DNA from: an uncultured Lentisphaerales bacterium
Lineage (GTDB): Bacteria; Verrucomicrobiota; Lentisphaeria; JABSQK01; CAJWLW01
Assembly: GCA_964460215.1 (NCBI GenBank)
Contig: CAYWQM010000005.1
Location: 16,211-80,210 of the forward strand
Length of the DNA stretch: 64,000 bases
Reading direction: 5' to 3'
A program made the position numbers and the translations under genes. Below are positions 5,761-64,000 of the stretch, in pieces. The first letter of the stretch is position 1. Each line of letters begins with the position of its first letter. Below the pieces are notes generated by a model. The model had not been told where the DNA came from. It was given only the letters and a program-made list of their open reading frames with translations, and did not search any database.

Positions 5761-6031
5761 TCGAAACCTGTAGCCATATCACCATAAATTTCCCGTAGTA
5801 ATTTGTTCGTGATGTTCCCCCACATCGCGGTTGCCCGCGTGTGAATCAGCAGGGCGCCTTGATCTATCATCGGTCTCACCGTAAACGCATCTGCGGCCCG
5901 CCAACGTGCCGGGTGCCGTCCCGGTGGTCGGCATATCACCCGTTAACTTTATGTTGGTCAATAAAAAGAAGAGGCGTAGATTAGAAAAGCATGTCCCTTT
6001 GCTTTATGGCATATGACAATGACAGGGTGAC

Positions 6032-6841: not shown

Positions 6842-7023
6842 CCGGAACAGGGCGAGCTTGCGGAGTTGTTTGATTGAAGAGGCAACTAAAATTGTATTAC
6901 GGGCAATGACAACCGGCTCGATTGATCGAACCCGAAAGCTCTCCCGCCACCGCGGGACCGTTCCGGGCTGTTCATCTCACCGTTGGTCCATGAGGCTTTG
7001 TCAGAGGACACAGGAGTAAGGCG

Positions 7024-7440
7024 ATGAAAGGAATTAAGGCCGCGGCAATCCAGTTTACTCACGCGCCTGGGGACAAAGCGTTTAACTGGGGGAGGATTCG
7101 ATCGTTCGTTAGGGAGGCCGCTGCGCAAGGCGTGGACCTCATTGTTTTTCCGGAGATGTGCATAACCGGCTACTGGCATGTGAGGAAGCTCTCCAGGGCA
7201 GAGGTCGAGTCCCTGGCCGAGTCTGTTCCGGCCGGCCTCTCGACGCAGGAACTGCTTACACTCGCAGCGGCCAATAACATGACCATTGGCGCCGGACTCA
7301 TCGAGATCACCGATGCCGGAGAACTGTTCTCTCATGCGTGGCCAAAGAAAGGTAGCGGAGAGAAGCACCCCTTCTGGATACCATGCACAAACCCTCTTGC
7401 GAAAGAAGAGATCCTCTCTAACCTTCGGGCATTCTCATGA
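7024..7440 (+). pseudogene. N-terminal fragment of a carbon-nitrogen hydrolase (nitrilase superfamily); homology ends at ~7329 (..ITDAGELF)
   Basis: AAIQFTHAPGDKAFNW...DLIVFPEMCITGY...TIGAGLIEITDAGELF matches the N-terminal half of CN_hydrolase including the catalytic-Glu FPE motif. Downstream residues (SHAWPKKGSGEKHPFW...) have no family similarity. Its stop overlaps the start of the inserted transporter gene (ATGA at 7437-7440). Confidence 0.55.
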
Positions 7441-8306
7441 TCGTTAACGTTCTTCTGCCACTCATTCTCGCCTTTATCATGTTCTCTCTTGGGCTGGGAC
7501 TAAAAAAGGCTGATTTTACCCGCGTGGTGCAATTCCCTACCGCCTTTGGAGTAGGCCTATGCAACCAGCTATTCTTGCTTCCTGTCATTGCCTTTGCCTT
7601 AGTAAAAGCCTTTAACCTTAGCGGTGAACTGGCAGTGGGCATGATGATTCTTTCCTTCTGTCCAGGAGGCGTGACCACCAATGTTTTGGCCCGCCTTTCT
7701 AAAGGAAATGTCCCACTTTCCATTTCCATGACCGCCTTCACCAGTCTTGCGTCGATTCTGACCGTTCCTTTTTTAGTAGCCCTGAGCGTTCGGCACTTTT
7801 TAGGGGCTGAAGCACTTGCTGTGAATGTTGGCGAGCTAGGCATCAAAATGTTCCTTATCACCGCCGTTCCCGTTCTCCTGGGGATGCTCGTCACGAAGAT
7901 GGCACCGGGCTTCACCAAAACAGCGTCTAAACCAATTTCCTTAATCGCCATTGGTCTCTTCTGTCTCATGATTGTCGCAGCGCTTGCTAAGAACTGGGAC
8001 GTCGTTGCAAAGCATTTCCCAACCCTTGGTCCTGCCCTCATCACGCTCAATATCACCCTGTTAGCGGTCGGTTTTCTTAGCTCGCGCCTCGCCAAGCTCG
8101 ATACCAAAGATGCCTCCACGATCAGCATCGAATCTGGAATCCAGAATGGGACTCTTGGTATCGCTGTGGGCGCTCTTATCGCCGCTGGAACGGCCGAAAC
8201 CCTTCCTCCAACAACCGTTCCTTCAGCCGTTTACGGAGTCTCCATGTACTTAGTTTCTATTCCCTTTGTCATCTGGAGAGCGAAAACAAACCGCTCTAGC
8301 GATTAG
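7437..8306 (+). CDS. Bile acid:sodium symporter (BASS/SBF) family transporter
   Basis: ~9 TM helices; LSFCPGGVTTNVLARLSKGNV is characteristic of BASS. GC (~50%) and codon usage differ from the flanks (~62%). Confidence 0.75.
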   Translation: MIVNVLLPLILAFIMFSLGLGLKKADFTRVVQFPTAFGVGLCNQLFLLPVIAFALVKAFNLSGELAVGMMILSFCPGGVTTNVLARLSKGNVPLSISMTAFTSLASILTVPFLVALSVRHFLGAEALAVNVGELGIKMFLITAVPVLLGMLVTKMAPGFTKTASKPISLIAIGLFCLMIVAALAKNWDVVAKHFPTLGPALITLNITLLAVGFLSSRLAKLDTKDASTISIESGIQNGTLGIAVGALIAAGTAETLPPTTVPSAVYGVSMYLVSIPFVIWRAKTNRSSD

Positions 8307-8480
8307 AGAAACTTGCGACTTGGCAACTTCCAAGGGAATGAAATTCGCCCTCTACCTTCAATACAGATCTCCCGTCAGTACCGTGGGCCTGCTCAAGGAG
8401 GTCAAGGGAATTGGTTCCTCTGGTGCTATTTTCCTTCCGCACCACGGAATCAAAGGTGACGAGCACGACAATCTCGAGAT

Positions 8481-9161
8481 AACACCTATGTCGTTGCCAT
8501 GCCGGACGGTCGTGTTGAAAGCCATCGCAAGCTCCACTGTTTCATCAGCGAGCATATGAAGTCTGGCGATGCGTACACGGTGTTCGATATCCCGCAGGGT
8601 GCCCGCGTAGGTGTTCTCATCTGTTTTGACAATAACATTGGTGAGAATGTGCGAATAACGGCGCTGAAGGGCGCGGAGATCCTGTTGGCGCCGCACCAGA
8701 CAGGCGGGTGTGATTTTCCGAGTCCCCGTTGCATGGGTAAGATCGACCCGCAGTTGTGGGAAAACCGAGACCGTGATGCCGCCGCGATCGAGGCTGAATT
8801 TCGTGGGCCCAAGGGGCGAGAATGGTTGATGCATTGGCTCCCGGCTCGAGCTCATGACAATGGGCTGTTCCTGGTCTACAGCAATGGTGTGGGTGTTGAT
8901 GACGACGAGGTGCGTACGGGCAACGCCATGATCCTCGACCCCTACGGCGACATTCTGTCCGAGACGTGGGTGCCGCGGGATGCAATGGCCGTGGCGGACC
9001 TTGATCCCGATTGTCTCGACATGTGCACGGGTCAACGTTGGTTGACAACTCGCCGGCCGGAACTGTATGGGCCGCTCATTGAGCGATCCGGCAAGGAGAA
9101 AGATACGCGCACGGTGCGCTTTGCCAGGAAACAATCACCCGACCAGGCTCCGTCAGGCTAA
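8481..9161 (+). pseudogene. C-terminal fragment of the same carbon-nitrogen hydrolase (first ATG at 8499; homology starts ~8481 right after an in-frame stop)
   Basis: NTYVVAMPDGRVESHRKLHCF...GARVGVLICFDNNIGE...LFLVYSNGVGVDDDEVRTGNAMILDPYGDIL matches the CN_hydrolase C-terminal half (YRKLH Lys, catalytic Cys in ICFD). It continues exactly where the 7024 fragment stops (..GELF | NTYVV..). Confidence 0.55.
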
Positions 9162-9300
9162 CAAGCGGCCCGAGCCGACGGTGGGGACGCTGCAGGATAT
9201 TGCCGCCTGCGAGGCAGCCTGAAAAAACAGTCGCTGAGGAGCCGGGTGGCACTGAAAGAAGCCTGGCACTGCTGAGCTGCTCGGAGCAGCCGCAGTTCAT

Positions 9301-10407: not shown

Positions 10408-10668
10408 TGTGTGTCCGCGATTTTGAGGAAGGCGATACCGAACCATGGCGGCGTCGACGGTGATGCGGAGTCGTTGCATTGTAATGAGTTGTCGTATCCG
10501 TTATTCTACTACTTCACGAACGAGAAGCGAACATTATCGGAGCACACGGATCCGTCGTTGTGCAACCTGCCCAGACACGCGGATCGGGTACCGGCACTTG
10601 CAACTTGCCACGTAGCGGCTGAGCGTATACACTTGCACCCGAAAAACCACTTGTAGGAGAGATCTACC

Positions 10669-11976: not shown

Positions 11977-12156
11977 TGTCTATGTCACAACCGTTGCATG
12001 TTTCGCTCGGTTCGGAGCACGGCGACTTCATCGGCATTTCACACCTGCCGGCCGGCGCGGCTGCCTTTCCAGGCACGGTCAAACTTGCACGCGTGTCCGA
12101 TTGCGCGCGCGCGACGGCGATTGGATACGAACGCAAAACGAGGAGTTGAAGACAAT

Positions 12157-14114: not shown

Positions 14115-14966
14115 TTATCCGCGCGCTGGCTCCGTCATCTCTTCGCGAGCTTTGGCCGCCAGTGCCGCCAGGTGCCCGTCGTTTGCCATGCCCTGTTCCA
14201 GATGGACCAGCCGTTGCGCGTTCGCCGTTGCCATCATGGTTTCACCGTACATACGGTCGATCCAGAACCGGGCGTTTCCGGCGATATGATCCTTGAGCTC
14301 GGGGATCTGATCGTCCGGGAAGCGCTGCGAACAGTTGATGGTGAACATGCGCCGCCGGGGATCGCCACCGAAGGCCGCGTGTTTCAGGTTGTGATTGAAC
14401 ACCAGCACGTCGCCTGGATCGGTCTCCAACGCGATTGCCGGCAGGTCCTTGCCTTCCACACCCCAGAGTAACGGTTTCTTTTTCGGTATTATCTGCTGCA
14501 GCTTTTCGGAGTAGGTGTCGCCGGTGTTGTGACTGCCGGGGATGACGCGCAGGCAGCCGGTCTCACGCGTCAGCGGATCAAGGTAGAGCGCGATCTTGAC
14601 ATAGCGCAACACCGCCGGGTGCCAGCCGTCCGAGTGCCAGACCGTGTCGCCGGCGTAGTAGTTGCCGTCGGAACCCATGTAATTAAAGTTGTTCCCGAGC
14701 AGACTGCAAAGCAGACCGTAGATGCACGGTTCCTCAAGCAACGCACAGAGCCGCTCATGCTGGTCGATAAATGGCACGATACAGGAGCGCTGCGTAGGGT
14801 CGTGTGCCTTGCCGTCGTGCCCATCGCCGCGTGTTGCCCAGATTTCATCGAACGCGGCAGTGATCTCTGCGATACTGTCGGCCAGTGCTCCGGGCAATGC
14901 CAGAAAACCGAACGTATCGAAGAATTCCAATTGTTCAGGTGTGAGATCGTGTGATGACATGGACAA
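14115..14966 (-). CDS. Phytanoyl-CoA dioxygenase (PhyH) family protein
   Basis: TVWHSDGWH...LRVIPGSHN...HNLKHAAFGG is an Fe/2OG PhyH-like His-x-Asp...His arrangement. Confidence 0.75.
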   Translation of the reverse strand: MSMSSHDLTPEQLEFFDTFGFLALPGALADSIAEITAAFDEIWATRGDGHDGKAHDPTQRSCIVPFIDQHERLCALLEEPCIYGLLCSLLGNNFNYMGSDGNYYAGDTVWHSDGWHPAVLRYVKIALYLDPLTRETGCLRVIPGSHNTGDTYSEKLQQIIPKKKPLLWGVEGKDLPAIALETDPGDVLVFNHNLKHAAFGGDPRRRMFTINCSQRFPDDQIPELKDHIAGNARFWIDRMYGETMMATANAQRLVHLEQGMANDGHLAALAAKAREEMTEPARG

Positions 14967-20526: not shown

Positions 20527-21330
20527 ATGTCCAGCAAATCAGCAAAGGGTATCAAGTACGAGACAGGCGTTGCCACGGAGGTGACGGACTTGCTGACGGT
20601 TGAAGCGCCGTTGCAGGTGACGATCAACGGCAATCCCTTTACCGTCACGATGCGCACGCCCGGCGACGACTATCGCCTGGTCACCGGGCTGCTGTTTACC
20701 GAGGGTGTGGTCAAGCAGAGCAAAGACCAATTCCCTTACAGTGAGGAGAAAGACCCTGACAGCGGCGTCATCGTCGGTGTCGATCTCCAGATCCCCGAGG
20801 TGTTTCTGTGCGAGAACCTGCAGGCGAAACGGTCACTGCTGATCAACGCTGCCTGCGGTGTTTGCGGTACCCGTGAACTGGCGGACTTGAACCTGACCGG
20901 CGAACCGCTCGAGCCGCGAGACGTCCTCGACGTCGGCATCCTGCCCGGGTTGGCCGAAACCATGCGCCGGCGCCAGCGCGTGTTTGAAGAGACCGGGGGT
21001 ATCCACGCTGCAGCAGCGTTCCGGTTCGACGGCGAATGCCTTTGCGTTTTTGAGGATATCGGTCGCCACAACGCCGTCGACAAGGTCGCCGGTTTCTTAC
21101 TCGAGACCGATGACATCGGCGGTGCCGACATCCTGTTCGTCAGCGGCCGTGTGTCGTTCGAGATCGTCTCAAAGGCCTGGTACGCCGGCATTCCATACCT
21201 GGTTGCGGTCTCCGCACCATCGACCCTGGCAGTCGACATGTGTGAGTATTGGGGGATGTCGCTGATTGCCTTCTGTCGCGAAACACGCGCGACAGTTTAC
21301 GCTAATCCACAGAATGTGCGTGGTGTGTAA
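20527..21330 (+). CDS. fdhD: Formate dehydrogenase accessory sulfurtransferase FdhD
   Basis: GRHNAVDKVAGF motif and conserved Cys (NAACGVCG); ~267 aa. Confidence 0.85.
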   Translation: MSSKSAKGIKYETGVATEVTDLLTVEAPLQVTINGNPFTVTMRTPGDDYRLVTGLLFTEGVVKQSKDQFPYSEEKDPDSGVIVGVDLQIPEVFLCENLQAKRSLLINAACGVCGTRELADLNLTGEPLEPRDVLDVGILPGLAETMRRRQRVFEETGGIHAAAAFRFDGECLCVFEDIGRHNAVDKVAGFLLETDDIGGADILFVSGRVSFEIVSKAWYAGIPYLVAVSAPSTLAVDMCEYWGMSLIAFCRETRATVYANPQNVRGV

Positions 21331-21551
21331 AGACGGCGTCCCCTGCCAAAACCGCCCGGCGCATGCTGTGACGTTTGCACGAGAACCGAGTCCTTGCGCA
21401 TCACCAGTTTCTCCTTGCAATCGGCTATAGATATTGCTATCCTATTAGTAGCCAACCTTTAACACCCACAAGCCAGTCGGCTTGTCTCCAGCCGCTGTGA
21501 TGCGGTTACGGTTTATTATGCCCGGTCACCGGGCTTACCGCGGGATTATGC

Positions 21552-23219
21552 ATGTCTAGGAATATAAGCGCGTTGTCCGGCCGTAAAGGCCTCGACGACA
21601 ATCTTTTCGAACGCATCGTCAAGATCGGTGCCAACCCTGCCTCGGCACCCGATCACGAGCTGCTGGCGAAGGAATACCTCATTGGTGAAGCGATCACCTT
21701 TGGTGCCGCATCCTTTTACGACCTGATCAGTGAAGAGGTTGCCTCAAAAAAGGCCCTGGTCTGCGACGGCAGCGCCTGTCTCTGTGCTGGCACCCAGGAC
21801 AAGGTTGTCGATGAACTCAAGAAGCACATGGACGAGTCAGAGATCGGTACCATCACCTGCCTCGGCCGGTGCCACGAGAACGCGGCGTTCTACTACGGCG
21901 GCTGGAACTACTCCGGCACTGCGATCGACCAGCTCGATGGGGTCATCGGTAAAGAGGGCACCGGTTCGAAAGACAGCTACCACGTCGAATCCCTGCTCGA
22001 TACCCCTATCCTTACGGCCGAATTTCCCGGTGTCGACAGCTATTACGCAGTTTTTCGCGATGGCGTACTGAAGAAGACCGGCGATGAGCTTATCGCCGAG
22101 GTCCAGGCCTCGAACCTGCGCGGCCGCGGCGGTGCCGGATTCCCGACCGGTTTCAAGTGGAACGCTGCCAAGGAAGCGCCGGGCGACAAGAAGTATATTG
22201 TCTGCAACGCCGACGAAGGCGACCCGGGTGCCTATATCGACCGCTATCTACTTGAGCAGCAGCCGCACAGCGTGCTCTTCGGTATGATGGCTGCCGGCTA
22301 TGCGGTCGGCGCCGACGAAGGGTGCCTGTACATTCGCGCCGAGTATCCGGATGCAGTCCAGATCATCGGCCGCGCCATCCAGGAGCTCGAAGGCTGCGGC
22401 TTGCTCGGCGACAATATCTGCGGCTCGAGTTTCTCGTTTTCATTCAAGGTCGTGGTCGGTGCGGGCGCCTACATCTGCGGCGAAGAAACGGCCTTGCTCG
22501 CTTCGATCGAAGGCCGCCGGCCGGAAGTTGATGTGCGGCCGCCTTTCCCGACGACCGAGGGGCTGTTTGGCAAGCCGACAGTCGTCAACAACGTCGAGTC
22601 CTTCGCCAACATCCATGAGATCGTTGCAAATGGCGGTGCCGCTTATGCTGCTGTCGGCACCGAGAAGTCGGCCGGCCCCAAGCTGCTGTGTCTCGACGGA
22701 ATGTTCAACCGCCCGGGCCTCTTCGAAGTGCCGATGGGTACGCCCCTGTCCACCGTGGTCAATGAGCTTGGCCAGGGATTCCGACAGCCGGTCAAGGCCT
22801 TGCACATCGGTGGGCCGCTCGGCGGGCTGGTGCCGATCGCTAAAATCGATTCACTGACCGTTGATTTCGAGTCCTTCAGCAACGGCGGCTTTCTGCTTGG
22901 CCACGGCAGCATCGTCTGTGTGCCAGAGTCGTTCCCGATGATCCGCTACGTCGAGCACATCCTCGACTTTTGCGCCTTCGAGTCCTGTGGCAAGTGCTTT
23001 CCCTGCAGGCTCGGTTCGACTCGAGGTCACGAGCTGGTGACCGGTGCCATCGAGGGCGGCGCGCTGATCGATCGCCAACTCTTCGAAGACCTGATCGAGA
23101 CAATGGAGAAAGGCAGCCTCTGTGCCCACGGCGGCGGCATACCGTTGCCAATCAGGAACGCTTTGATGTACTTTAATGATGAACTGAAGCCGTATTTTCG
23201 CGAGGACGCTGCATCATGA
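21552..23219 (+). CDS. fdsB: NAD-dependent formate dehydrogenase beta subunit (fused NuoE-like + NuoF-like domains)
   Basis: N-terminal thioredoxin-like 2Fe-2S region (CDGSACLCAG...CLGRCHENA). NuoF FMN/NADH motifs GRGGAGFPTGFKW, and 4Fe-4S ESCGKCFPCRLG. Confidence 0.85.
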   Translation: MSRNISALSGRKGLDDNLFERIVKIGANPASAPDHELLAKEYLIGEAITFGAASFYDLISEEVASKKALVCDGSACLCAGTQDKVVDELKKHMDESEIGTITCLGRCHENAAFYYGGWNYSGTAIDQLDGVIGKEGTGSKDSYHVESLLDTPILTAEFPGVDSYYAVFRDGVLKKTGDELIAEVQASNLRGRGGAGFPTGFKWNAAKEAPGDKKYIVCNADEGDPGAYIDRYLLEQQPHSVLFGMMAAGYAVGADEGCLYIRAEYPDAVQIIGRAIQELEGCGLLGDNICGSSFSFSFKVVVGAGAYICGEETALLASIEGRRPEVDVRPPFPTTEGLFGKPTVVNNVESFANIHEIVANGGAAYAAVGTEKSAGPKLLCLDGMFNRPGLFEVPMGTPLSTVVNELGQGFRQPVKALHIGGPLGGLVPIAKIDSLTVDFESFSNGGFLLGHGSIVCVPESFPMIRYVEHILDFCAFESCGKCFPCRLGSTRGHELVTGAIEGGALIDRQLFEDLIETMEKGSLCAHGGGIPLPIRNALMYFNDELKPYFREDAAS

Positions 23220-25966
23220 ATAAAATTGCCTATCTCGATGGCGAGTCATACGAAATCGAAGCAGGTGAAACCCTGCTGAATTTTATCGAGCGACAGCGTG
23301 AGAAGGGCTGCGTGCCGACACTGTGTTATGACGACCGCCTCGAGCCCTTCGGCTCCTGCCGCGTCTGCTCGGTCGAAGTCGCCCTCAGTGAAGACGGACC
23401 GCGCCGCATGGTTGCGGCCTGCCATACCCCGGTCGCCGAGAATATGTGGGTATTCAGCGAATCCGACTCAGTCAAGAAGCTGCGCAGGAACATTGTCGAA
23501 CTGGTCGTCACCGATTACCCGTTGCAGAGTCTCGAGTCACCGCCCAATGGCGATGCCGAGCTCAAGAAAGTCATTGACCAGGTGGGGCTCGACATCCATT
23601 CCGTGCGTTACCCGGCCGGCAAGAACCACGCCGATCGTCAGCAGGACACCTCGCATCCGTACATGCGCGCCGACCTTTCGAAGTGCATTAACTGCTATCG
23701 CTGCGTGCGTGCCTGTGACGAGATCCAGGGGGAGTTCGTGCTGAACATGGCCGGCCGAGGCTTCGACAATCACATCATTATGGGGGCCGACGAACCGTTT
23801 AAGGACTCGCCGTGCGTTTCCTGTGGTGCCTGTTCGCAAACCTGTCCGACCGGTGCCATCACAGACATCCACAAACTCCAGGTGCACGAGGCCGAACGGA
23901 AGGTCCGCACGGTCTGTACGTATTGCGGCGTCGGCTGCAACCTCGAAGTAGCCGTCGGCCCCGGCGACAACATCCTGTCGATTGAAGCGCCGCCCGATGC
24001 CGAAGCGAACCGCGGCCACACCTGCCTGAAAGGGCGCTACGCCTTCAAGTTCCAGAGTCACCCCGAGCGCCTGCAGAGTCCACTGATCCGCCGTGGCGAA
24101 GAATTCGAGGAAGTGTCCTGGGACGAGGCTTACGATTACATCGCCGAGAAGCTGTCCGGTGTCAGCTCCGAACATGGGCCGGATGCCATTGCCGGCATAT
24201 CGTCGGCGCGCTGCATGAATGAAGAGAACTATCTGATGCAGAAGTTCATCCGTGCAGTCATCGGCACCAACAACATTGACTGCTGTGCCCGCGTTTGTCA
24301 TTCACCGACGGCGCTCGGCATGCAGTGGGCCTTCGGAACTGGTGCCGGCACCAATTCGACAGAGTGCCTGAAAAATACCGACCTGATCATGATCATCGGT
24401 GCCAATCCGACGCACGCACACCCCGTGACCGGCGCCCGCATCAAACAGGAAGTCATGAAGGGCACGCCGCTGATCGTCATCGATCCGATCGTGACAGAGA
24501 TTGCAGAGCACGCGAAATACCATCTGGCCCTGCGCCCGGGTACCAATGTCGCGCTGCTCAACATATTCGCTTATTATCTCGTGGACGAGAACCTTATCGA
24601 CAAGGAGTTCGTCGAAGGACGCTGCGAAGGCTATGACGACTATGTCGAGCAGTTGCGCCAGGTCGACATCGACGCGATGGAAGCGGTTTGCGGTGTCGAT
24701 CGTGAACTCGTGCGTGAAGCCGCGATCGCCTACGGCACCGCCAAGAATGCCATGAGCTTCCACGGCCTGGGCGTCACCGAGCACAGCCAGGGTACCAAAA
24801 CTGTCACCATGATTGCGGACCTTGCAATGATGACCGGTAACCTCGGACGCACCGGTGTCGGCGTCAATCCGTTGCGCGGCCAGAACAACGTCCAGGGTGC
24901 CGCCGACATGGGTGTGCAGCCGCATCAGGGCGCCGGCTACCTGCCCGTCACCAACCCGGACAGCCAGGCGAAGTACGAAAAGATCTACGGCGTCCCGGTA
25001 CCGAAAGAGATCGGCTATAAGATCCCACAAATGTTCGACGCGGCCGTGGCCGGCAAGCTCAAGGCTCTGTGGATCATGGGTGAGGACGTTGTACAGACCG
25101 ATCCCAACACCAAGCACGTGATGGAGTCGCTGGAGAGCCTCGACCTCCTGGTGGTCCAGGAAATTTTTATGACCGAAACGGCCAAGCTGGCGCATGTCGT
25201 TTTGCCGGGCGCCACGTTCCTGGAGAAAAGCGGTACGTTCACCAGCGCCGAGCGCCGGGTGCAGCGCTGTAATCAGGTCGTGCCGCCGCTGGCGGGGACG
25301 AAGTCAGACGGCCAGATCATCGTCGATATCATGAACCGCATGGGATACGAGCAGGCCGGCTATGACCCCGATGTCACGCTGCAGGAGATCAGCCAGATCG
25401 TCCCGTTCTTTGCCGGTGCCAAGTGGGACGAGTTCGGTGACAACGGCAAGCAGTGGCCGATCAAGCCCGACGGCAGCGACACCAAGATCCTGCACACCGA
25501 GACATTCAAGCGTGGCCGCGCCAAGTTCCATTTCTGGGACTTCGAAGAGAGCCGGGAGCTGGTTGACAACAGCGCTGAATTTCCGTTTATTCTGACGACT
25601 GGTCGCAAGCTCGAGCACTACAACTGCGGCACGATGACTCGGCGTACCGGCAATCTGCAGTTGCTCAGCGAAGACGTCCTGGTGATCAACCCGGTTGACG
25701 CCGAGAAGAAGAACATTGCCGATGGCGACACCGTGCGACTGTTCTCGGTCCGTGGCGAAGTGAGTCTCACGGCGGAAGTCTCGACCCGCGTCAGGCCCGG
25801 GGTGATCTACACGACCTTCCACTTCCCTGAGCAGATGGTCAATTACGTCACCAGCAATGTCCAGGACGCGGATTCCCTATGTCCCGAGTACAAAGTCGTT
25901 GCCGTCGACGTTGAGCGAGTCGCGACGGCTGCCACGGCTGAGCACGCCGAGCTGGCAAAGGCTTAG
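23216..25966 (+). CDS. fdsA: NAD-dependent formate dehydrogenase alpha subunit (molybdopterin oxidoreductase; Cys-type, no in-frame TGA)
   Basis: N-terminal 2Fe-2S (CRVCSV), 4Fe-4S motifs CINCYRCVRAC and CVSCGACSQTCP, CTYCGVGC Mo-bisPGD domain. Active-site region CCARVCHSPTA has Cys where SeCys would be. ATGA overlap with fdsB. Confidence 0.9.
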   Translation: MNKIAYLDGESYEIEAGETLLNFIERQREKGCVPTLCYDDRLEPFGSCRVCSVEVALSEDGPRRMVAACHTPVAENMWVFSESDSVKKLRRNIVELVVTDYPLQSLESPPNGDAELKKVIDQVGLDIHSVRYPAGKNHADRQQDTSHPYMRADLSKCINCYRCVRACDEIQGEFVLNMAGRGFDNHIIMGADEPFKDSPCVSCGACSQTCPTGAITDIHKLQVHEAERKVRTVCTYCGVGCNLEVAVGPGDNILSIEAPPDAEANRGHTCLKGRYAFKFQSHPERLQSPLIRRGEEFEEVSWDEAYDYIAEKLSGVSSEHGPDAIAGISSARCMNEENYLMQKFIRAVIGTNNIDCCARVCHSPTALGMQWAFGTGAGTNSTECLKNTDLIMIIGANPTHAHPVTGARIKQEVMKGTPLIVIDPIVTEIAEHAKYHLALRPGTNVALLNIFAYYLVDENLIDKEFVEGRCEGYDDYVEQLRQVDIDAMEAVCGVDRELVREAAIAYGTAKNAMSFHGLGVTEHSQGTKTVTMIADLAMMTGNLGRTGVGVNPLRGQNNVQGAADMGVQPHQGAGYLPVTNPDSQAKYEKIYGVPVPKEIGYKIPQMFDAAVAGKLKALWIMGEDVVQTDPNTKHVMESLESLDLLVVQEIFMTETAKLAHVVLPGATFLEKSGTFTSAERRVQRCNQVVPPLAGTKSDGQIIVDIMNRMGYEQAGYDPDVTLQEISQIVPFFAGAKWDEFGDNGKQWPIKPDGSDTKILHTETFKRGRAKFHFWDFEESRELVDNSAEFPFILTTGRKLEHYNCGTMTRRTGNLQLLSEDVLVINPVDAEKKNIADGDTVRLFSVRGEVSLTAEVSTRVRPGVIYTTFHFPEQMVNYVTSNVQDADSLCPEYKVVAVDVERVATAATAEHAELAKA

Positions 25967-60828: not shown

Positions 60829-61332
60829 TTGAACGCGGCACCGCGAATTGCCGCCCGCGCAACAACCAACTTCGAAATCCGGACGATGATCTCAATGCCA
60901 GCCAACAAGTACGATTACTTCGCCGGCTCCCTGCCGATGCTCAAGGCCGACGGCAGCCAGGGCCTGAGTGTCGGGGCATTCCTCGATGACTGCGAGCAGC
61001 AACTCACTTCGGCCGATTTCCAGGCGTTGACCGCTGCCCGGCGCGGTGCCGAGGAATTGTCCAGCCATGCTATTGCCCGCGCCTGGCAGCAGCACGATCG
61101 CGAAGTCCGTAATCTGCAGGCCGGAGAGGCGCTGTTCAAACTGCAGTTGCTCGAGCGCCAGCAGTCGTTCAGCTGCGAGGCCGGACATGAGGTGCTGGAA
61201 CAAGCCCGCAGCAGCCTGGCATCAGTCGGATCGTACACCATAGAGATTCGTAGGAATCGTTGTTTCCCTGATTCTGCTTCTGATAGGCTCAGGCACGACA
61301 TGGGCCTCCGCGGGGAGCTCGGCGTTGGGTGA
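60829..61332 (+). CDS. Hypothetical protein
   Basis: 167-aa ORF with protein-like composition (..MPANKYDYFAGSLPMLKADGSQGLSVGAFLDDCEQQL..). No recognisable motif. Overlaps an antisense ORF, so coding status is uncertain. Confidence 0.3.
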   Translation: MNAAPRIAARATTNFEIRTMISMPANKYDYFAGSLPMLKADGSQGLSVGAFLDDCEQQLTSADFQALTAARRGAEELSSHAIARAWQQHDREVRNLQAGEALFKLQLLERQQSFSCEAGHEVLEQARSSLASVGSYTIEIRRNRCFPDSASDRLRHDMGLRGELGVG

Positions 61333-61740
61333 TCCAGACTTCACGGCGTCTGGGGTGGGGTACTTCTGTGTACTCATCTTTGTCTGCGCCTATATCCTGG
61401 TGATGAGCGAGGAGTACTTGCAGCTCAGAAAGTCAAAGCCTGTGTTGGTGGCCGCGGGGTTTATTTGGCTTTTGACAGCTTGGGCCTTGCAGTCTCAAGG
61501 GTACGATTCCCGCTACGCTGAACCGGGCCGTCCGGGCAACTATATAATTTGAAGGAAGACCCTTCGGAATCTAGAAATCTTTGGGAAGAGAAGCCGGGGA
61601 TTGTTAAAGAACTATCTGACTTGCTTAAAAAGGTGAAAGGCGGGGATGCCTGAGCTAAGTTCTGTAATTGACTTAATGGCCCATACCTTAATAAACGGTA
61701 GCAGCCCCTTTCCCGAACCGGAATCGGGCAGATTTGAAAC

Positions 61741-62271
61741 ATGGCGTACAAGGTATTTATCTTTACATTGTTAATGATCACCTGGGTTGTTCTCTCAGGG
61801 CAGTTCGACGCTTTTCACTTGGCTCTGGGCCTGATCTCGTGTGGCCTGGTGACGTGGATGTCATCGGACTTGTTATTCCAAACCCGCGAGCAGTCGGTTG
61901 GAGAGAGGGTCTGTGAAGGTTGGAGGTTGGCTTTTTATTTTTTGTGGATGATCTGGCAGATTTTTCTGGCGAACATTGCGGTTCTGCGACTCGCTTTGTC
62001 GCCTGATGCGATGAAGAAAATCAATCCGAGCATTGTTCACTTCAAGACCGGACTGAAATCCGACTTCGCCAAATTTCTGCTCGCCAACTCGATTACCCTA
62101 ACCCCTGGAACGGTGACGATTAAAATCATGGGGGATGACTTTTATGTGCATGCAATTAATGATGCGGCGGCGGCGGGATTAGATGGTGAAATGGAACGCC
62201 GCATTGCCCGCATCTATCGTTCTGAGCGGGATGCTCGGGGTGGCAACTCGGACGGAAAGGAGTCTGCCTGA
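61741..62271 (+). CDS. mrpE: Na+/H+ antiporter subunit E (MrpE/MnhE; MbhA-like)
   Basis: ..LANSITLTPGTVTI.. (TLTPGT signature) and 2 TM helices. Confidence 0.8.
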   Translation: MAYKVFIFTLLMITWVVLSGQFDAFHLALGLISCGLVTWMSSDLLFQTREQSVGERVCEGWRLAFYFLWMIWQIFLANIAVLRLALSPDAMKKINPSIVHFKTGLKSDFAKFLLANSITLTPGTVTIKIMGDDFYVHAINDAAAAGLDGEMERRIARIYRSERDARGGNSDGKESA

Positions 62272-62272
62272 T

Positions 62273-62584
62273 ATGATCACTTTTTTCATGTGGGCGGGAA
62301 TTGCCTTATTGATCATGATGATCCCGATTTTTTATCGGATGAATATTGGGCCGACGGCAATTGATCGCATTGTCGCGGTCAATGTGATTGGTACTAAAAC
62401 AGCTATACTACTTGTTTTTATAGGCACGATTTTTCCCGGACAGAGGATCGGGATGTTCGTGGATTTTGCCTTGGCGTACGGGCTGTTGAATTTCATCGGC
62501 TCACTGGCAGCAGCGAGATTTTTCCATCGTTCCAAAGCGACGGGAGGAAAAATTGATGTTGCGGGAGACGCAAGGAAATCCTGA
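62273..62584 (+). CDS. mrpF: Monovalent cation/H+ antiporter subunit F (MrpF/MnhF; MbhB-like)
   Basis: ..GPTAIDRIVAVNVIGTKTAILLV.. is an MrpF motif. Start at MITFFMW (ORF track opens 62183). Confidence 0.75.
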   Translation: MITFFMWAGIALLIMMIPIFYRMNIGPTAIDRIVAVNVIGTKTAILLVFIGTIFPGQRIGMFVDFALAYGLLNFIGSLAAARFFHRSKATGGKIDVAGDARKS

Positions 62585-62587
62585 GTT

Positions 62588-62953
62588 ATGATTATCGATA
62601 CAATCAGCATAATTCTCATCGTAGCGGGCCTGGTGTTTTTCTTTGGCTCGGTTGTCGGAGTGATTCGCTTCCCTGACTTTTACACACGCATGCATGCTGC
62701 GGGCAAGGGAGATACTTTGTCGAGTTTGCTCGTGGTGATGGGCTTTGCGGTTTATCATTTCGGGCAAGTACATTGGACAAATTTTGTATGGGCGGATTTG
62801 CTGGTCATAGTCAAACTGCTCGCTATTTGCGCTTTCATCATGCTGACGTCACCGACGGCTACGCATGCGCTGATGGATGCCGGGTATGAGGACGGAATCG
62901 AACCGTTGACGCGCAAGGAAGGGAATGCCTTGTCTCAAAACGAAAGCGAGTAA
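62588..62953 (+). CDS. mrpG: Monovalent cation/H+ antiporter subunit G (MrpG/MnhG; MbhC-like)
   Basis: VIRFPDFYTRMHAAGKGDTLSSLL is the classic MnhG motif. Confidence 0.85.
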   Translation: MIIDTISIILIVAGLVFFFGSVVGVIRFPDFYTRMHAAGKGDTLSSLLVVMGFAVYHFGQVHWTNFVWADLLVIVKLLAICAFIMLTSPTATHALMDAGYEDGIEPLTRKEGNALSQNESE

Positions 62954-62974
62954 TAAGAGAATATTTTTCACAGC

Positions 62975-63220
62975 ATGATCTGGCAGTTCGACATCATTAT
63001 TCTTCTTTTCCTCGTGGTCACCGCAGTGATCTCGTTACGGGTGAAAGATTTACTGGCAGCATCAATGATCTTCGGGACTTACAGTTTTCTCATCTGTCTG
63101 CTGTGGGCGGGGATGGGGGCCGTGGATGTGGCATTTACCGAAGCCGCGGTGGGGGCGGGTATCAGCGCGGTTATTCTGATCGCCACCGTTTACAATACTA
63201 AAAGAAAATCATCGGATTGA
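62975..63220 (+). CDS. Small membrane subunit, MbhD/DUF4040-like (MrpB N-terminal-domain-like)
   Basis: 81 aa, 2-3 TM helices. Sits between mrpG and mrpB, as MbhD does in Mbh-type modules. Confidence 0.5.
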   Translation: MIWQFDIIILLFLVVTAVISLRVKDLLAASMIFGTYSFLICLLWAGMGAVDVAFTEAAVGAGISAVILIATVYNTKRKSSD

Positions 63221-63224
63221 ATTT

Positions 63225-63986
63225 ATGAAGTGGGTTGGACTTATCGCAGTTTTGTTTACCGGAGGGCTTTTGCTTTCGGCTGTCGATGATTTCCCTTATT
63301 GGGGGAATGCAGAGTCGCCGGCTAATGACAGTGTGGTGTCGCATTATTACATTGAAAATACGATGAGGGATACCGGGGTGCCGAACATGGTGACCGCGGT
63401 GCTGGCGGATTATCGTGGCTTCGACACCATGCTTGAAACGGTTGTTGTCTTGATAGCGGTCATTGCGATTATGGCCATCCTGCGAGTCATGAATCAGACG
63501 CCGGGTGGAGCGAAGCCTTCGGCGCCTCATGCGATTGGTGACCATCATGACATTATTGTTGGTACTACCTGTCGCTTATTGGTTCCGGTGTTGCAGCTGT
63601 TTGCTCTATATGTGATCGCGCATGGCCATCACAGCCCGGGCGGAGGATTTCAGGGCGGAGTCATTCTGGGGACGAGTTTCATTTTGTTGGCATTGGCAAA
63701 AGGTTTGAATCCCGTTCTGGAGCGATTACCGGAAAAACGTTACGTGAAATTGGCTTTTGTTGGCGTTGCCATCTACGCGGGTTTCGGAGTGATGTGTCAG
63801 TTTCTGGGAGAGAACTTTCTCGACTACGGTGTGTTGCATGTGTTGATGCCCGCAAGCGACGCAGCTCAGGCTCGATCCCACAGTATGCTGGGCGTGGAAA
63901 TCGGAGTAGCGTTCACTGTGTCAGCGATCATGTTTGCAATTTACGCCAATCTGTCTTCGAAAGGTGAACTGGAGGGAGGTCTGTAA
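63225..63986 (+). CDS. mrpB: Na+/H+ antiporter subunit B (MrpB/MnhB; MbhE/F-like)
   Basis: NMVTAVLADYRGFDTMLE and HGHHSPGGGFQGG are MnhB signatures. Confidence 0.85.
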   Translation: MKWVGLIAVLFTGGLLLSAVDDFPYWGNAESPANDSVVSHYYIENTMRDTGVPNMVTAVLADYRGFDTMLETVVVLIAVIAIMAILRVMNQTPGGAKPSAPHAIGDHHDIIVGTTCRLLVPVLQLFALYVIAHGHHSPGGGFQGGVILGTSFILLALAKGLNPVLERLPEKRYVKLAFVGVAIYAGFGVMCQFLGENFLDYGVLHVLMPASDAAQARSHSMLGVEIGVAFTVSAIMFAIYANLSSKGELEGGL

Positions 63987-64000
63987 TTATGGGTGCTTTT

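Follow-up and report, generated by a model that had tools for sequence, protein, structure and literature searches.

The interrupted nitrilase-family gene

We analyzed a 64,000-nucleotide stretch of DNA (the window; contig CAYWQM010000005.1, positions 16,211 to 80,210 of the forward strand) from an uncultivated marine member of the Lentisphaeria. At its positions 7024 to 9161, a single-copy CN_hydrolase (nitrilase-family) gene is interrupted at one point, and a complete gene for a transporter of the BASS (bile acid:Na+ symporter) family lies between the two pieces. ORF listing, translation and Pfam searches gave three open reading frames (ORFs) on one strand, at 7024-7440, 7437-8306 and 8499-9161. 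The Pfam CN_hydrolase profile (PF00795) is covered from position 1 to 88 in the 7024 ORF and from 105 to 248 in the 8499 ORF, without overlap; the N-terminal piece scored 56.3 bits and the C-terminal piece 70.9 bits, against a cutoff of 23.2. Rejoined in silico, the pieces gave a gap-free protein of 328 amino acids (aa) with thousands of homologues. This query retrieved P0001, an uninterrupted 342-aa protein from a Lentisphaeria metagenome-assembled genome (MAG), to which it is 95% identical across 328 residues.

Six contigs that bear P0001 (L001-L006) are syntenic with the window at 92-95% nucleotide identity and carry the nitrilase gene uninterrupted. The gene order common to all seven is cytochrome, PhyH, nitrilase, RraA-like, glyoxalase and DegT. 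Alignment to the six loci placed the junctions between 7327 and 7328 and between 8478 and 8479, which makes the insert 1,151 bp long. Up to base 7327, the N-terminal piece matches L001-L006 at 94% identity, and the alignment resumes at 8479, upstream of the ATG at 8499 where the largest ORF of the C-terminal fragment begins. The empty site reads GAACTGT/ATAAC, the slash here and below marking the point of insertion, and in fuller form ...GGAGAACTGT/ATAAYACC... in the uninterrupted loci; GAACTGT/ATAAY is present in nine intact loci (L001-L006 and L101-L103). No nitrilase base was lost at the insertion and none was duplicated, so there is neither a target-site duplication nor a deletion. The end bases of the insert are unlike the matching flank bases (GT/TC at the left junction, AG/AT at the right junction), and the boundaries are therefore unambiguous. 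The features of the locus, all on the plus strand, are as follows.

6842..7023, plus strand, intergenic region upstream of the nitrilase gene; its position between PhyH and nitrilase is conserved in the sister loci
7024..7327, plus strand, nitrilase N-terminal fragment: codons 1-101 and the first base of codon 102, with the catalytic Glu
7024..7440, plus strand, chimeric 138-aa ORF: 101 nitrilase codons, the fusion codon and 36 insert codons
7328..8478, plus strand, inserted DNA: 1,151 bp, 50.6% GC (guanine plus cytosine), no terminal repeats
7328..7436, plus strand, 5' tail (leader) of the insert: 109 nt, of noncoding origin as far as can be told
7437..8306, plus strand, BASS/SBF-family transporter gene: complete, 289 aa, short form with nine transmembrane segments (9-TM type)
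8307..8478, plus strand, 3' tail of the insert: 172 nt, polymorphic, no detectable function
8479..9161, plus strand, nitrilase C-terminal fragment: codon 102 from its second base on, codons 103-328 and the stop codon, with the catalytic Lys and Cys

An earlier note on this DNA had read the pieces as complementary halves of one gene, apparently cut once, with about 1.15 kb between them, and had proposed a search for an uninterrupted orthologue in relatives. The comparison with L001-L006 supplies such orthologues, bears out the reading and makes the length exact. The note had also found the right site, but its junctions, at about 7329 and 8481, each lie 2 nt to the right of the true ones. The residues ELF, which it read as the end of the nitrilase, include an F that is not nitrilase: the break falls inside Tyr codon 102 (T/AT), in the conserved ELYNT block, and the fusion codon now reads T/TC (Phe).

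Might the two pieces instead derive from a pair of tandem nitrilase paralogues, with a resident BASS gene between them, that deletions have trimmed? The earlier note had said that overlapping coverage or membership in different subfamilies would refute its reading. We found no specific support for this history, and several observations speak against it. The pieces abut to the nucleotide on a single-copy orthologue with nonoverlapping Pfam coverage, both are equally diverged from that orthologue (synonymous divergence, dS, of 0.165 and 0.150), and in the sister lineage a single intact gene occupies the syntenic position. We give this history next to no probability.

Alignment to PH0642 identified the catalytic residues as the Glu of FPEM, the Lys of HRKLH and the Cys of LICFD. 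The triad is no longer on one polypeptide: Glu is encoded by the 7024 ORF, and Lys and Cys are encoded by the 8499 ORF. Judged from the sequence, the split of the triad inactivates the nitrilase. At the far end of the gene, the nitrilase stop codon TAA (9159-9161) is CAA in the sister lineage, and the sister protein is 14 aa longer. Since family members vary in their C-terminal tails, this difference probably does not matter.

Recurrence in independent assemblies

Besides the window, no fewer than nine assemblies, drawn from several ENA and Logan projects, carry the insertion (L007-L009 and L095-L100). L007 is a 99-kb ENA scaffold that is 99.8% identical to the window, L008 and L095 are ENA assemblies from two other campaigns or samples, and L100 is a megahit-type ENA contig. 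The other five (L009 and L096-L099) are Logan contigs from DRR6838xx and SRR27277808 runs. Both junctions are spanned by six loci (L007, L008, L009, L096, L097 and L098); L099 covers its right junction only, and L095 and L100 cover the left junction only. The insertion-bearing loci carry linked single-nucleotide polymorphisms (SNPs) that are haplotype consistent in flanks and insert alike. The chimeric ORF is represented in public assemblies by seven protein variants, all of 138 aa, and is open in all of them.

The earlier note had kept an assembly chimera among its alternatives. An assembly or binning chimera would have brought in transporter DNA from another organism, and both the composition of the insert, which is unlike that of the flanks, and the several short contigs that end near the junctions would fit such an artifact. 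However, the junctions recur across assemblers, projects and samples with haplotype-consistent SNPs, and a chimera would not put 1,151 bp between adjacent bases of one codon without loss. Recurrence and SNPs across projects thus exclude a chimera for practical purposes, and we regard its probability as negligible.

Some of the contig ends are of interest in themselves. L009 begins exactly 30 nt before the left junction (k-1; Logan uses k=31), L099 ends exactly 30 nt past the right junction, and L008 begins 55 nt before the left junction. Window position 8367, inside the SNP-dense 3' tail, is the end point of both L095 and L100, which come from different projects. These ends look like assembly-graph forks, which suggests that alleles differing at the junctions, possibly with an intact nitrilase gene, co-occur in those samples. 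An intact allele of the insertion lineage was not seen among the 12 members of the P0001 cluster, none of which is >95% identical, and a lineage-specific empty-site pattern had 0 matches in JGI metagenomes. What looked like an indel at 14451-14886, in the comparison with L007, proved to be a run of scaffold Ns only.

The inserted transporter gene and its origin

The inserted transporter gene matched PF01758 (SBF) at 124.4 bits against a cutoff of 24.3, over profile positions 1-190 of 191. Its score against TIGR00841 was 181 bits, under that model's 326-bit subfamily cutoff, and membership is thus assigned at the family level only. The protein has 289 aa, compared with 286-291 aa in hundreds of homologues. 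Its alignment starts at residue 40 of ASBT_NM and at residue 8 of 28sv_A, a solved bacterial BASS protein with a 300-aa chain. A first look against ASBT_NM had suggested an N-terminally truncated BASS; we rejected this on the homologue lengths and the 28sv_A alignment, by which the protein is full length and belongs to a short-N-terminus subfamily. The intact, same-strand symporter-family gene described in the earlier note is therefore what the insert contains.

The insert has a GC content of 50.6%, compared with 58% for the flanks and 57.7% for the whole window, and lies within the lowest 2.7% of 1,151-nt windows. A contrast of about 50% against 62% had been proposed; the value for the insert stands, and that for the flanks was too high. 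At third codon positions (GC3), the BASS gene has the lowest value among 38 ORFs of the window, 0.541, against about 0.70 for host genes. There is a caveat: a probably native ORF resembling an Mrp antiporter (63225-63986) has a GC3 of 0.555. Since GC-poor native-like ORFs exist elsewhere in the window, composition alone is weak evidence for transfer.

We therefore turn to the relatives of the gene. Its nearest non-self relatives are 64-70% identical in amino acid sequence and come almost entirely from Verrucomicrobiota MAGs. The sister Lentisphaeria MAG UBA8228 has a BASS gene of its own elsewhere in its genome (L042, DPYP01000596.1), and this is 58% identical to the inserted one. In a neighbor-joining tree, the L042 gene fell in a different clade, and the inserted gene sat on a long branch among Verrucomicrobiota-dominated sequences. 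The native Lentisphaeria gene also served as a GC3 control, at 0.64 compared with 0.54 for the inserted gene, and some Verrucomicrobiota BASS homologues are at 49-51% GC. The insert is missing from the nitrilase locus of the sister lineage, and we found no other homologue of this BASS subfamily inside a nitrilase gene. We conclude, on sequence comparison, that the insert appears to be foreign, from an unsampled donor whose nearest known relatives are in the Verrucomicrobiota. As a separate matter, a BASS gene binned as Verrucomicrobiaceae MED-G183 (L052) is nearly identical to that of L042; L045 was listed alongside.

How does the transporter gene sit in its new surroundings? The TGA of the chimeric ORF overlaps the BASS ATG in the sequence ATGA at 7437-7440. 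This overlap, also reported in the earlier note, is real. An ATGA start (Met-Ile) is native in 36 of 74 BASS homologues, and the overlap is therefore intrinsic to the start of the BASS gene. The fortuitous part is that the nitrilase frame stays open for 36 insert codons and then ends at the ATGA, for which we estimate about 1/3 x 0.2 by chance.

For neither tail could we detect a homologue, in DNA or in protein. The leader had no Rfam match and no consensus promoter, and a 30-nt exact leader pattern had 0 matches in JGI metagenome contigs and viral contigs. When both tails were compared with the flanks of about 85 BASS-homologue loci by tblastx and blastn, nothing better than an E value of about 0.02 was obtained. 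When 5.8 billion proteins were searched with the open frames on the plus strand of the two tails, the self match P0241 was the only one. A minus-strand frame of 60 codons (8299-8478), which we took to be possibly the 3' end of a convergent donor gene, had 0 matches in a HMMER search over 1.84 billion representatives and no Pfam match.

Evolution after the insertion

We compared ten haplotypes, the window and nine loci. Polymorphisms were distributed as follows.

PhyH (native neighbor): 4 nonsynonymous, 14 synonymous
Nitrilase N-terminal piece: 4 nonsynonymous, 3 synonymous
Nitrilase C-terminal piece: 4 nonsynonymous, 0 synonymous
Nitrilase pieces combined: 8 nonsynonymous, 3 synonymous
BASS: 7 nonsynonymous, 6 synonymous
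3' tail: segregating sites 7/172
Upstream intergenic region: segregating sites 7/182 (8 haplotypes)
109-nt leader: segregating sites 0/109

The ratio of nonsynonymous to synonymous polymorphisms in the nitrilase pieces differs from that in PhyH (Fisher p=0.018), as expected of pseudogene evolution. The nitrilase changes include L39P, L64P, F42C, which adjoins the catalytic Glu, and, in the C-terminal piece, a T-to-I change in the conserved NTY block. Using 29 outgroups, we also polarized the 17 changes that separate the window from P0001. Four of them, P67S, Y151F, I61V and V272A, fell on the window branch and hit columns that are invariant in 27-29 of the 29 outgroups; the sister branch had none of this kind. 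Y151F lies beside the catalytic Cys, and the residue is Tyr in 29/29 outgroups. By these patterns, the nitrilase pieces are a pseudogene in decay in the insertion lineage.

The BASS ORF is intact in all haplotypes. Most of its nonsynonymous sites fall on residues 4, 284 and 288 or within a loop private to the window, which indicates moderate constraint only. With three haplotypes, the gene had shown 5 synonymous and 0 nonsynonymous changes and seemed to be under strong purifying selection; that reading weakened to the present counts with ten. Two BASS variants, E133K and K137T (AAA versus ACC, two adjacent bases; 7833 and 7846-7847), are private to the window, and all nine other haplotypes carry the other allele at both sites. 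These two changes may reflect real variation, or else an effect of consensus calling or polishing. N4K (7448) is a shared polymorphism, with N in seven haplotypes, including the window, and K in three.

Some of these data pull against the picture of a decaying host gene beside a retained transporter. Between the nitrilase and its counterpart in the sister lineage, the pairwise ratio of nonsynonymous to synonymous divergence (dN/dS) is 0.153, which is not elevated (neighbors, 0.12-0.25). The decay signal rests on few sites, and the BASS counts are not significantly different from those of PhyH (p=0.13). The unremarkable dN/dS implies that the insertion is recent relative to the split at a dS of about 0.155. 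The insertion is older than the diversification of the sampled haplotypes and was a single event.

The two tails have fared differently. The 3' tail and the upstream intergenic region are polymorphic to the same degree. In the 5' tail, 0/109 sites segregate in the 10 haplotypes, compared with 14/354 in those two regions pooled (Fisher p=0.048). That the 5' tail does not vary hints at a role in expression: it may serve as a leader, as a promoter or in coupling.

Signatures of mobile elements, integrons and introns

Was the insert moved by an element with recognizable ends or enzymes? The earlier note had seen no inverted repeats, transposase or integrase, and comparison of the ends and Pfam scans confirmed this. 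At most 13/40 positions of the two ends match as inverted repeats at any offset, and a repeat finder gave no meaningful direct or inverted repeats there. No other reading frame of the insert had a Pfam match or resembled a transposase. A scan of 26 more large ORFs, located from 21 to 37.9 kb, yielded neither a transposase nor an integrase; the window beyond about 38 kb was not scanned. The hallmarks of a DDE insertion sequence (inverted repeats, target-site duplication and transposase) are thus all lacking. The two junctions share no core nucleotide, which argues against integration by a serine or tyrosine recombinase and against IS110-type and Xer-type (Xer/IMEX) integration. A dif-like reading of the TGTATA target was tried and was negative.

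Elements that leave no footprint deserve separate consideration. A nonautonomous, cargo-only element could have been moved in trans by an HUH enzyme of the IS200/IS605 or IS91/ISCR kind or by an undescribed system. The insert resembles these elements in its footprint-free insertion, its asymmetric ends and its lack of target-site duplication and terminal inverted repeats, and the invariance of the 5' tail across the 10 haplotypes also counts in favor. The insert differs from them in having no subterminal hairpin at either end: folds of the ends, on either strand and across the junctions, were no better than those of shuffled sequences (z, -0.9 to +0.7). The flanks end in CTGT and GTTAT, with no known HUH target tetra- or pentanucleotide, and no transposase is encoded in the insert or in the 26 other ORFs scanned. 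Its 3' end is as polymorphic as neutral DNA. It is single copy in every collection searched: neither the 5.8 billion proteins nor the metagenomes of JGI nor viral contigs gave a second copy. We consider an element of this kind unlikely.

Gene-cassette-like capture had also been suggested earlier, and we found no support for capture of the integron type. An integron integrase would have placed such a cassette at a secondary site, where it would be expressed from the resident promoter. Like a cassette, the insert is a cassette-sized unit with a single promoterless ORF and a short leader, downstream of a resident promoter and in the orientation for expression. Unlike a cassette, it has no attC: neither the GTTRRRY nor the RYYYAAC core (R''/R') occurs on either strand in 7300-8500. 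The 172-nt 3' tail is SNP dense and shows no significant fold (z, -0.86 or +0.02), and the junctions do not match the G/TT crossover. There was no IntI-like ORF among the 26 scanned, and neither an integrase gene nor attI was found nearby. An integrase domain was likewise missing from all 31 ORFs covered by the scans from 21 to 37.9 kb, which did not extend to the rest of the genome. Cassette capture is very unlikely.

Could the insert be a self-splicing intron, such that nitrilase is still made from spliced mRNA? Bacterial and phage introns and intervening sequences (phage td/nrd, skin and nifD) share with the insert the clean interruption of a conserved coding block, here ELY/NT. The boundary bases, U at the end of the upstream exon and G at the end of the insert, match those of group I splice sites, although this would occur by chance about 1 time in 16. 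In contrast to those elements, the insert has no ribozyme, recombinase or direct repeats that we could find, and its cargo is a transporter and not a homing endonuclease or reverse transcriptase. An Rfam search of 7000-9200 at E<=10 matched no family, including Intron_gpI and Intron_gpII, though the 870-nt ORF inside the insert could lower the sensitivity of the covariance model for a group I intron. GUGYG was not found at the 5' end of the insert, which ends in AG and not in the AY of group II introns. P1 pairings checked by hand were weak, and none was convincing. The tails fold no better than shuffles, the 3' tail evolves neutrally, and a host gene with the polymorphism pattern above, including L39P, L64P and F42C, is incompatible with a functional spliced nitrilase. 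The negative RNA searches and the evolutionary data hence outweigh the intron-like boundary bases, and we regard splicing as extremely unlikely.

The neighborhood and the remainder of the window

The insertion is not the only rearrangement near the nitrilase gene. Within the same 10-kb neighborhood, we observed three further block indels relative to the sister lineage, and in all three the block is absent from the window.

Window 5904-5913: lacks about 5.0 kb (L003 3903-8889) with a 288-aa ORF, DLH, Usp and an ArsB/CitMHS transporter
Window 10468-10473: lacks about 3.3 kb (L001 5929-9267) with CBM9, adh_short and small ORFs
Window 12044-12050: lacks about 2.75 kb (L001 10853-13601) with Beta_helix and Laminin_G_3

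Two of the three blocks have the same 6-7 nt at both ends (GAGTYG and CCTGSCG). The nitrilase neighborhood is an indel hot spot. In the sister lineage, the spacing between the nitrilase and RraA-like genes varies as well: the TARA contig L004 has about 155 extra nt (L004 11030-11253 versus L003 11030-11098), and L002 has about 50 extra nt.

Elsewhere in the window, 61181-64000 is the only other stretch as GC poor as the insert (48-51%). By its translations, it holds a row of small hydrophobic ORFs that resemble Mrp/Mnh Na+/H+ antiporter subunits. At 20527-25966, genes for FdhD, a NuoF-like protein (Complex1_51K) and a molybdopterin oxidoreductase probably form a soluble module of the formate dehydrogenase type. 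The window also has three separate PhyH-family dioxygenase genes (6032, 14115 and 33006) and two rhamnosidase-family genes.

A probable route for the insertion

Taken with the exact junctions, these searches lead us to a reading that we think probably correct: a foreign fragment was captured by homology-independent illegitimate recombination, and its transporter was then retained under the nitrilase promoter. In this scheme, a linear foreign fragment would have been joined into a chromosomal double-strand break by blunt end joining or a related repair error. The fragment would have been a transcription-unit-sized piece made up of the 109-nt leader, the complete BASS gene and the 172-nt trailer. 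BASS would probably be transcribed from the resident nitrilase promoter, which we presume to lie within 6842..7023, although no consensus sigma-70 site was found there, and its translation would be coupled to the 138-aa chimeric ORF through the ATGA overlap. This chance arrangement, in frame and expressible, could explain why the insertion was kept.

We favor end joining because no duplication results from it and neither ends nor enzymes encoded by an element are required. In addition, the microhomology at the junctions of the nearby indels implies that illegitimate recombination is active in the region. The mechanism, left as unknown in the earlier note, is thus most economically explained by ordinary homology-independent illegitimate recombination. 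Element-free small variable segments are a major class that has been attributed to illegitimate recombination (Touzain et al. 2010, PMC2884548). The insert is like those segments in being gene sized, in being present in one lineage and absent from its sister, in having no insertion sequence, integrase, repeats or att site, and in lying among other indels whose junctions show microhomology. It is unlike them in that both junctions are blunt (0 bp lost, gained or shared) and within a conserved ORF, and in that its cargo is one intact, apparently retained gene. The subtype may be end joining or template switch. The class also takes in homology-facilitated illegitimate recombination in transformable bacteria.

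Capture by illegitimate recombination has a difficulty of its own. Bacterial end-joining and microhomology events commonly lose or add bases, and doubly blunt, loss-free junctions are atypical of them.

Perhaps, then, an enzyme was responsible after all? We considered an undescribed, enzyme-mediated and footprint-free process, acting in trans on cargo-only DNA without recognizable ends, because the junctions are exact, the content is like that of a transcription unit and the 109-nt leader is invariant. If true, such a process could place a promoterless gene into an expressed ORF in coupled register. We judge this to be quite improbable.

Capture by illegitimate recombination, with pseudogenization of the host gene, is a known kind of event, and the insertion is best filed as an unusually clean instance of gene gain by that route. 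It is also a rare natural case in which horizontal gene gain is visible at single-nucleotide resolution: the empty site is available, as are the filled site in several haplotypes and the record of the host gene's decay. The reading implies that a promoterless foreign transporter gene could become established through the promoter and frame of a dispensable resident gene, without a mobile element. If more footprint-free single-gene insertions were found in this lineage, they would point to a specific mechanism.

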